Assembly (NCBI GenBank): GCA_038918635.1
Contig: JBCKZY010000005.1
Location: 1-42,849 of the forward strand
Source of the DNA: Thermodesulfovibrionia bacterium
GTDB taxonomy: Bacteria > Nitrospirota > Thermodesulfovibrionia > UBA6902
DNA: 42,849 bases
Reading direction: 5' to 3'
Part shown: positions 18,984-20,429 of the stretch, piece by piece
Layout: each line of letters opens with the position of its first letter
Numbering within the stretch: the stretch's first letter is position 1
Translations under genes and position numbers: made by a program
The notes under the pieces: generated by a model
The model's database searches: none
What the model saw: only the letters and a program-made list of their open reading frames with translations
Told to the model about the DNA's origin: nothing

Positions 18984-20429
18984 ATGAGTATTGAAGGACT
19001 TCACCGGATTGATGCAGCAAGACTCGAAATACCCCGGGGATTCAGACCCGGCATGAGAACAAACGGTATTATCTATATCGACAGCACACTTGAAAAAGAC
19101 CTCGATATAAAATCAGTAAATCAGGTTGCAAATGTAGCAACCCTTCCGGGAATCGTCGGTTCATCTCTTGCGATGCCTGATATCCATATGGGATACGGGT
19201 TCGCAATCGGAGGTGTTGCCGCTTTCGATATTAAGGAAGGTATTATTTCACCCGGAGGCGTCGGATACGACATCAACTGAGGTGTCCGACTTCTGAGGAG
19301 CAGCCTCAGTAAAGAAGAGGCTGTCCCCAGAATAAGAGACCTCGTGGAGGTCATGTTCAGCAAAATACCGACAGGAGTCGGTTCAAAAGGCGCCCTAAGG
19401 CTCTCAAAAAAAGATCTCAGGGATATTATTCTTAAAGGTGCAATCTGGTCTGTTGATAACGGTTTCGGCATCAATGAAGACCTGGAACATACAGAGTCAC
19501 GTGGATGTATTGAAGGCGCTGACCCCGGCCTTGTAAGTCAAAAGGCCTACGAACGCGGGAAGAATCAGCAGGGGACCCTGGGTTCTGGAAACCATTTCGC
19601 TGAGATACAGTATGTTGATGAGATCTACGATGAGAATGCTGCAAAGGATCTAGGGCTCTTTCAGGACCAGATTACTGTGATGATTCACACCGGCTCACGC
19701 GGTTTCGGACATCAGGTCTGTACAGATTTCATTGAAATAATGCAGAAAGCTGCCAATAAATATAAGATAGAACTTCCTGACAGGGAACTGGCCTGTGCTC
19801 CTATTAGTTCCCCTGAGGCATCTGATTATATGGGTGCAATGAGGGCGGCGGCTAATTATGCTTGGGCAAACAGGCAGTGTATAACTCATCTTGTGATCGA
19901 ATCCTTTTCAAAAGTCTTTAACGCGGGGCCTAAAAGCCTGGGGATGAGCCTGCTATATGATGTAGCCCATAACATAGCCAAAGTTGAGGAGCACGCAATA
20001 AATAACACTGCCAGAAAACTGATAGTCCACCGTAAAGGTGCGACAAGGGCATTCCCTCCCGGCCATCCGGAACTCCCTGATGACTACAAACATCTGGGCC
20101 AGCCGGTTATTATTCCGGGAGACATGGGAAGAGCATCCTATATTCTCCTTGGAACTGAAAAAGGCATGAGAGAATCTTATGGTTCAACCTGTCACGGTGC
20201 CGGAAGACTAATGTCAAGACACAAGGCCATAAAGGCAGCAAGGGGCAGGTCCATCTCAAGAGAGATGGAGGAGAGAGGTATCATTGTAAGGGCAACGGGA
20301 AGAAACACCATTGCTGAAGAGATGCCTGAGGCTTACAAAGACATTACAAATGTAGTTAACGCTGTTCATAATGCAGGGCTGTCCAGAAAAGTCGCTAAGC
20401 TCAGACCACTTGGTGTTATAAAGGGATAA
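18984..20429 (+). CDS. rtcB: RtcB family RNA ligase, 481 aa, with in-frame TGA (codon 99, 19278-19280) at the catalytic Cys; predicted selenoprotein
   Basis: ORFs 18984-19280 and 19344-20429 are in the same frame and separated only by one [17 protein letters not shown]...GGVGYDIN[TGA]GVRLLRSSL; downstream motifs [38 protein letters not shown] and EEMPEAYKD are intact. Confidence 0.9.
19290..19314 (+). promoter_or_regulatory. Candidate bacterial SECIS hairpin
   Basis: CTGAGG-AGCAG-CCTCAG (19293-19309), extendable by CTT/AAG; the apical loop starts 18 nt after the UGA and has G at position 2. Confidence 0.65.

Follow-up and report, generated by a model that had tools for sequence, protein, structure and literature searches.

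Does a UGA codon in the middle of an RNA ligase gene end the protein, or is it read as selenocysteine (Sec)? The question is raised by the rtcB gene of a Thermodesulfovibrionia bacterium of the Nitrospirota, found in a window of 42,849 nucleotides (the whole stretch of DNA analysed here; assembly GCA_038918635.1, contig JBCKZY010000005.1, positions 1 to 42,849 of the forward strand). RtcB, which serves in RNA repair and in the splicing of tRNA and XBP1, is the universal ligase that joins 2',3'-cyclic-phosphate or 3'-phosphate ends of RNA to 5'-OH ends with GTP and Mn2+; in this genome codon 99 of its gene is TGA. With a probability of about 0.9, UGA-99 is read as selenocysteine within a full-length RtcB RNA ligase, where selenium insertion and ligase activity are what we infer from the genomic evidence. 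A first-pass annotation of the DNA had proposed this reading, which is supported at the level of sequence by recurrence of the TGA in relatives, selA, selB, selC and selD in the same genome, contigs of other sequencing runs, selection on the gene and the alignment of the codon with a metal-binding cysteine. Further support comes from an element absent from that annotation, a hairpin after the UGA that fits the model of a selenocysteine insertion sequence (SECIS). The features concerned are the following.

18970..18976, + strand: Shine-Dalgarno-like AAGGGGG, 7 nt 5' of the rtcB start, read directly from the sequence
18984..20429, + strand: rtcB coding sequence, 481 codons including UGA-99 and then TAA; predicted archaeal/eukaryal-type 3'-phosphate/5'-OH RNA ligase
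19278..19280, + strand: proposed selenocysteine codon U99 (in-frame TGA), equivalent by alignment to Cys98 of Pyrococcus horikoshii and Cys122 of human RTCB
19291..19332, + strand: SECIS-like hairpin of 15 bp, its lower and upper stems split by single unpaired A residues; nt 14-55 if the U of UGA is nt 1
19308..19316, + strand: apical loop AGUAAAGAA (9 nt), with G second and then U; the loop begins 27 nt past the UGA

The rtcB frame starts with ATG at 18984 and stops with TAA at 20427-20429; the TGA at 19278-19280 is its sole in-frame stop, and there are no frameshifts. Both the sequence and the list of open reading frames (ORFs) thus bear out the description of a single 481-codon frame broken only by this TGA. 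As had been expected of standard gene calling, the mechanical ORF list cuts the gene in two, with pieces at 18984-19280 (98 aa) and 19344-20429 (361 aa). When read through, the protein matches the Pfam family PF01139 with an E-value of 8.3e-181 and 602 bits (gathering cut-off 27), residues 47-481 covering profile positions 1-426 of 426, that is, the full length of the profile. Residues 5-481 align with P. horikoshii RtcB in the Protein Data Bank (PDB) at an E-value of 4.7e-177 (1uc2, 4dwq, 4isz), and the full-length alignment with human RTCB (7p3b, 8odo) gives 1.3e-153. The later catalytic motifs GSGNHF, IHTGSRG, AHN and CHGAGR are all intact downstream of the TGA, again in keeping with the first-pass annotation, and the active-site residues D96, H204, H235, H329 and H404 are in place. 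In P. horikoshii numbering, the metal ligands Asp95, Cys98, His203, His234 and His329 and the nucleophile His404 are thereby all accounted for, with position 99 a TGA read as Sec. The archaeal and human enzymes share with the window RtcB these metal ligands, the guanylylated His and the motif GG[VI]GYDIN-x-GVRL; they differ in having a Cys codon where the window gene has TGA, and the window RtcB is bacterial and without an intein. Against NF038162, the model for RtcB with an intein ahead of the Cys98 equivalent, the window protein scores 752 bits, below the cut-off of 1150, and aligns in two stretches that are split at residue 98 and skip the intein part of the profile.

Alignment to the solved enzyme places codon 99 on P. 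horikoshii Cys98, so the TGA does fall at the metal-binding cysteine, as had been claimed. According to a review of RtcB, one Mn2+ of the P. horikoshii enzyme is bound by Cys98, His234 and His329 and the second by Asp95, Cys98 and His203, making Cys98 common to both ions (PMC10630183). Cys-to-Ala mutants at the equivalent residue are described there as ligase-dead, and the active-site cysteine as oxidised in RtcB purified aerobically (PMC10630183). In human cells, the oxidoreductase PYROXD1 is dedicated to protecting the equivalent Cys122 (PMC10630183; PMC12263435).

Elsewhere in the window TGA is an ordinary stop, a further point on which the first-pass annotation was right. Among 37 ORFs of at least 150 aa, 26 end in TAA, 7 in TGA and 4 in TAG, and the histidine kinase gene upstream of rtcB is one that ends in TGA, overlapping the next start; TGA is therefore not reassigned genome-wide. 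Could the codon instead be a TGC or TGT that was wrongly sequenced or assembled? In favour of this stands the fragmented state of the source, a metagenome-assembled genome (MAG) of 174 contigs. However, independently assembled Logan contigs span 19278-19280 in four runs from two studies, with no differing letter at these positions among the matches listed. The two best runs (X1 and X2) are possibly the source sample itself, while the other two contain a near relative that shares its differences with the same-genus genome G001 and has retained the TGA. The same codon is also present in relatives from other assemblies, which weigh more than the contigs, and the error explanation is rejected as having next to no chance of being correct.

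Relatives of the window's organism show that the codon is not peculiar to one genome. RtcB was found in 37 of 41 related genomes searched, with full-length loci in 30. At the codon-99 column these 30 orthologues have TGA in 9 cases, TGC in 19 and TGT in 2, so that TGA recurs at one column while the other 21 homologues encode Cys. None of the 30 has another in-frame stop, and the residues flanking UGA-99 are identical across the orthologues compared at that column (n = 30). An rtcB fragment from the same genus has TGA at the codon-99 column too, and a fragment in genome G033, which ends at a contig edge, has one TGA by stop count, its column being unconfirmed. In a tree of these 30 relatives, Sec and Cys forms are intermingled; at least 5 changes of state are required, and strongly supported branches make 3 of them unavoidable. 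The residue at this site is C in each of the 120 best homologues of the window protein, a weak observation because storage may turn U into C.

Selection on either side of the codon was assessed by the ratio of nonsynonymous to synonymous substitution rates (dN/dS), which was taken from the same-genus pair only because dS is saturated in pairs beyond the genus. The ratio is 0.105 for codons 1-98; past the TGA, codons 100-161 give 0.38 and codons 330-481 give 0.13. These low values indicate that the downstream part is translated and under purifying selection.

The TGA form extends well beyond the Nitrospirota. A scan of approximately 186,000 species-representative genomes for the motif G-Y/F-D-I-N-TGA-G-V, a pattern blind to the E. 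coli-type D-I-G-C-G RtcB, returned at least 119 stretches. Of the 119 matches listed, tblastn identifies 118 as RtcB, at 50-76% identity to the protein of the window, and one is a chance match. In 87 of the 119, 375-390 open codons follow the TGA before a stop, and 28 run off the stored locus; the remaining 4 are the chance match and three apparently damaged genes. The labels in the record titles of these 119 listed matches are distributed as follows.

Thermodesulfobacteriota: 31
Nitrospirota: 26
Acidobacteriota: 24
'Deltaproteobacteria': 16
Myxococcota: 9
Pseudomonadota-labelled MAGs: 5
No phylum given: 3
Binatota: 2
Eisenbacteria, Gemmatimonadota and Planctomycetota: 1 each

One TGA-form rtcB belongs to a named organism, Ca. 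Magnetobacterium casense MYR-1 (L119:5895-7325, NZ_JMFO01000010.1). Its RtcB is held in the public protein collection only as a 361-aa C-terminal piece (100% identical; 98,229-bp contig), and the gene has likely been mis-called in public annotation. In a phylum sample of 401 genomes, exactly one TGA was found in 43 among the matches listed, all in the window's class, the codon position having been checked only in those that are among the relatives. Four class genomes of genus g42 (G087, G113, G161 and G198) encode intein-containing RtcB with open frames of 964-971 aa, and their match to the window protein begins at approximately residue 97. The intein split at residue 97-98 implies that the same codon hosts Cys, TGA or an intein, depending on the lineage.

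This distribution bears on the possibility that rtcB is a pseudogene, decaying after a recent nonsense mutation of its Cys codon. Only one base change separates TGC or TGT from TGA, and the two fragments returned by standard gene callers, like the truncated public entry for Ca. Magnetobacterium casense, are what such a gene would yield. A decaying gene, however, would not be expected to share its TGA with 9 of 30 orthologues, a same-genus fragment and 118 listed genes of several phyla, nor to lack a second lesion in all 30 orthologues, and the downstream dN/dS of 0.13-0.38 and the long open frames of the 87 listed loci speak against it equally. The pseudogene explanation is rejected as very improbable on the grounds of TGA recurrence, intact frames and purifying selection past the TGA. 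A two-piece enzyme, in which translation stops at UGA-99 and restarts at GTG 19344 to give 98-aa and 361-aa polypeptides that assemble, agrees with the existence of the ORFs 18984-19280 and 19344-20429. Such an enzyme would lack the essential metal-bridging residue and lose residues 100-120, yet codons 100-120 are preserved, without a shift of frame, in every TGA form, and no conserved start codon or ribosome-binding site lies directly past the TGA. This arrangement is likewise highly unlikely.

A candidate for the recoding signal in the RNA is the hairpin at 19291..19332. The 68 nt from the UGA fold with a minimum free energy (MFE) of -33.3 kcal/mol (z -5.8), and none of 200 shuffled sequences is equally stable. 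The bacterial SECIS (bSECIS) model, as given in a review, specifies a loop of 3-9 nt, an upper stem of 4-16 bp, G in the first two loop positions, a distance of 16-37 nt from the UGA and an MFE of at most -7.5 kcal/mol (PMC13188914). The window element falls within these limits, with a loop of 9 nt, an upper stem of 8 bp, a spacing of 27 nt and its MFE of -33.3 kcal/mol. Many relatives are also predicted to form a small second hairpin that takes in the UGA (nt 1-19), and the window sequence does not fold into it.

Comparison across genes shows that the hairpin is under selection. When 34 distinct Nitrospirota-type TGA sequences are aligned, the hairpin pairs are formed in 88.2% of cells, and sliding the partners lowers the figure to 45-58%, a structure taken from one alignment member being biased toward itself; none of 500 shuffles matches the observed pairing or covariation score. 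RNAalifold independently finds the lower stem together with some of the upper one. Within the same alignment, pair 15-54 is CG in 28 sequences and UA in 6 with no mismatch, and pair 18-51 is CG in 20, GC in 10, UA in 1 and GU in 1 with 2 mismatches. In both pairs the partners are synonymous third positions (Leu with Arg and Leu with Pro, respectively), so that their covariation reflects a constraint on the RNA rather than on the protein. The 60-nt segment that follows the UGA folds more stably than every one of six control windows from the same gene in 19 of 20 Nitrospirota-type genes. Stem pairing reaches 93% of cells in 10 Sec forms as opposed to 68% in 21 Cys forms; of the 15 paired positions, 12-15 are retained in the 10 TGA sequences and 7-14 in the 21 Cys sequences, a gap that fits decay of the hairpin after conversion to Cys. 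In genes not of the Nitrospirota type, a hairpin of at least 4 bp is present in 89 of 90 among the matches listed, its loop starting at nt 24-26 in 79, and the commonest loops are GGUC (28), GGUU (11) and GUC (10). The arrangement in these genes is presumably close to that of E. coli fdhF.

The machinery for Sec insertion was looked for in the window's genome, and selA, selB, selC and selD are all present, on other contigs of the same MAG (1.93 Mb, 174 contigs, 68% complete). The selB and selA matches score 358 and 617 bits. The selD match (343 bits) contains its own in-frame TGA in KAAG-U-AAK, the canonical N-terminal loop, and the tRNA-SeC has the anticodon TCA. The same MAG has a further selenoprotein gene, FdhA-like, whose TGA lies in CARV-U-HAP ahead of a hairpin with a GGUC loop. 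The two selenoprotein genes lie as follows.

G000:C99:3180-3920 (L168): FdhA-like selenoprotein gene, TGA in CARV-U-HAP and GGUC-loop hairpin
G000:C12:558-1472 (L007): selD selenoprotein gene, TGA in KAAG-U-AAK and small GGC-loop hairpin

Within this one genome, the SECIS-like elements of rtcB, the FdhA-like gene and selD are markedly unlike in shape. Across the relatives, selA is above its curated cut-off in 11 of 11 genomes with TGA in rtcB, the TGA column being verified in 10 of these and that of G033 resting on the stop count only. Five relatives have no selA match; 3 of these have Cys-RtcB and 2 have no RtcB match.

With recoding accepted, UGA-99 might still be decoded as something other than Sec. 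Systems with a tRNA(Sec)-like tRNA that inserts Cys occur in some bacteria; Cys could also be delivered by SelB with Cys-tRNA(Sec) under selenium scarcity, and hairpin-promoted near-cognate read-through could insert Trp or Cys. The site requires a Cys-like ligand, Cys forms are common (21 of 30), and the Nitrospirota-type hairpin loop is often without the canonical G, all of which would agree with such decoding. On the other hand, selA, a Sec-type selD, tRNA-SeC (TCA) and classic Sec genes are found in the same genome, and for a Cys product TGC or TGT would suffice without the cost of recoding, whereas TGA and the hairpin have been kept in many lineages. Decoding as another amino acid is accordingly considered improbable.

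Several observations weigh against selenocysteine at UGA-99 in a functional RtcB. The Nitrospirota-type loop is A-rich and not conserved, with the G rule obeyed in 14 of 34 sequences, and the shape of the rtcB hairpin is unlike that of the GGUC-loop element in the FdhA-like gene of the same genome. Two Cys forms (L019 and L030) retain 14 of 15 hairpin pairs, and part of the pairing could stem from coding constraint or from recent Sec-to-Cys conversion. The sel genes and rtcB are joined only by the binning of a 68%-complete MAG. No RNA run is among the listed runs that hold the stretch, and these runs are silent on expression. Damaged-looking loci make up 3 of the 118 listed RtcB genes, namely L087, which is frameshifted, and L114 and L116, which give split tblastn matches. 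Finally, an engineered P. horikoshii RtcB with Sec at exactly the same position (U98) is reported to have undergone spontaneous cleavage at a peptide bond close by (Haruna et al., 2014; PMC4150793), and the residues flanking the engineered U98 match those of the natural TGA forms. That construct was artificial, with UAG recoded through EF-Tu in E. coli and no SECIS (PMC4150793), unlike the natural TGA-rtcB genes with their UGA, hairpin and purifying selection.

As to the damaged-looking loci, the frameshift of L087 sits near the IHTGSRG motif, and L087, L114 and L116 may represent assembly errors or real decay. L087 was also considered as a gene with two Sec codons and rejected, since its second TGA is a product of the frameshift.

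If UGA-99 is indeed read as Sec, synthesis would begin with SelD, which would make selenophosphate, and SelA, which would convert Ser-tRNA(Sec) into Sec-tRNA(Sec). SelB would deliver the latter to the ribosome on meeting the hairpin that begins 11 nt past the UGA, and translation would then run through the remaining 382 codons. In the folded protein, a selenolate in place of a thiolate would bridge the two Mn2+ ions of the GTP-binding, guanylylating active site, its predicted partners being Asp96, His204, His235 and His329, with His404 as the nucleophile. A selective benefit of Sec-RtcB is likewise something we infer. The best guess is that Sec may shield the oxidation-prone, metal-bound residue from irreversible over-oxidation and/or shift metal affinity. 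This rationale is offered because the fragility of the Cys is documented (PMC10630183; PMC12263435) and by analogy with enzymes in which Sec ligates Ni or Mo/W (PMC13188914).

These Sec-ligated enzymes, formate dehydrogenase FdhA and [NiFeSe] hydrogenase, are the closest precedents for the proposed chemistry, as Sec directly ligates their catalytic metal. In the review's account, selenium is coordinated to Mo/W or Ni, and protection from irreversible over-oxidation has been proposed (PMC13188914). Both are redox enzymes, however, while RtcB joins RNA by GTP-dependent nucleotidyl transfer with Mn2+. The first-pass annotation had called a non-redox selenoenzyme unusual. This is fair, though not without predicted precedent, since SelD and a predicted Sec-containing methylated-DNA-protein-cysteine methyltransferase are selenoproteins other than classical oxidoreductases, and the methyltransferase acts on nucleic acid (PMC13188914). 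These two have other folds and chemistry (selenophosphate synthesis and alkyl acceptance, respectively), and in neither does Sec bridge a binuclear metal site.

The enzyme and the recoding system are thus both known, and it is their combination that was not found catalogued. In full-text literature, outside which subscription journals and supplements lie, no natural Sec-RtcB was found, only the engineered U98. RtcB is not among the 119 prokaryotic selenoprotein families in Table 1 of a May 2026 review (PMC13188914), and a term look-up in the BSepDB paper gave no mention of ligase, splicing or RctB, although a listing on the website is possible (PMC13326102). Among the 4 NCBIfam families matched by the window protein, none is a selenoprotein-type RtcB model. 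Archease (PF01951) and RtcA (PF01137) gave no match in the 68%-complete genome, which is not evidence of their absence.

A broader proposal is that Sec-RtcB constitutes a natural and widespread selenoprotein family (Nitrospirota, Thermodesulfobacteriota, Acidobacteriota, Myxococcota and others) with repeated flips between Sec and Cys at a codon that also hosts an intein, and that selenium bridging a binuclear Mn2+ site in a non-redox ligase is an answer to oxidative fragility. Taken as a whole, this proposal is judged slightly better than an even bet. If true, a nucleic-acid enzyme with a metal-bridging Sec would join a list of selenoproteins dominated by oxidoreductases, and bacteria would have their own way of coping with oxidation at the fragile active site of RtcB, for which animals use PYROXD1. 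A natural selenium version would also allow a direct test of how exchanging sulfur for selenium affects metal binding, guanylylation and oxidation resistance. Hundreds of rtcB genes in MAGs are probably annotated as truncated or as pseudogenes.

The gene context of rtcB offers no functional clue. The neighbouring genes, together with the sole tRNA gene in the window, are given below.

16836-18784, + strand: HAMP/HisKA/HATPase histidine kinase and stand-alone receiver-domain response regulator, directly 5' of rtcB
20435-21247, + strand: MqnA-like gene of menaquinone synthesis (futalosine pathway), TTG start 6 nt after the rtcB stop
21531-22343, - strand: 270-aa ORF with no Pfam match
162-246, - strand: tRNA-Leu (anticodon GAG)

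The histidine kinase and response regulator genes overlap by 4 nt (ATGA).

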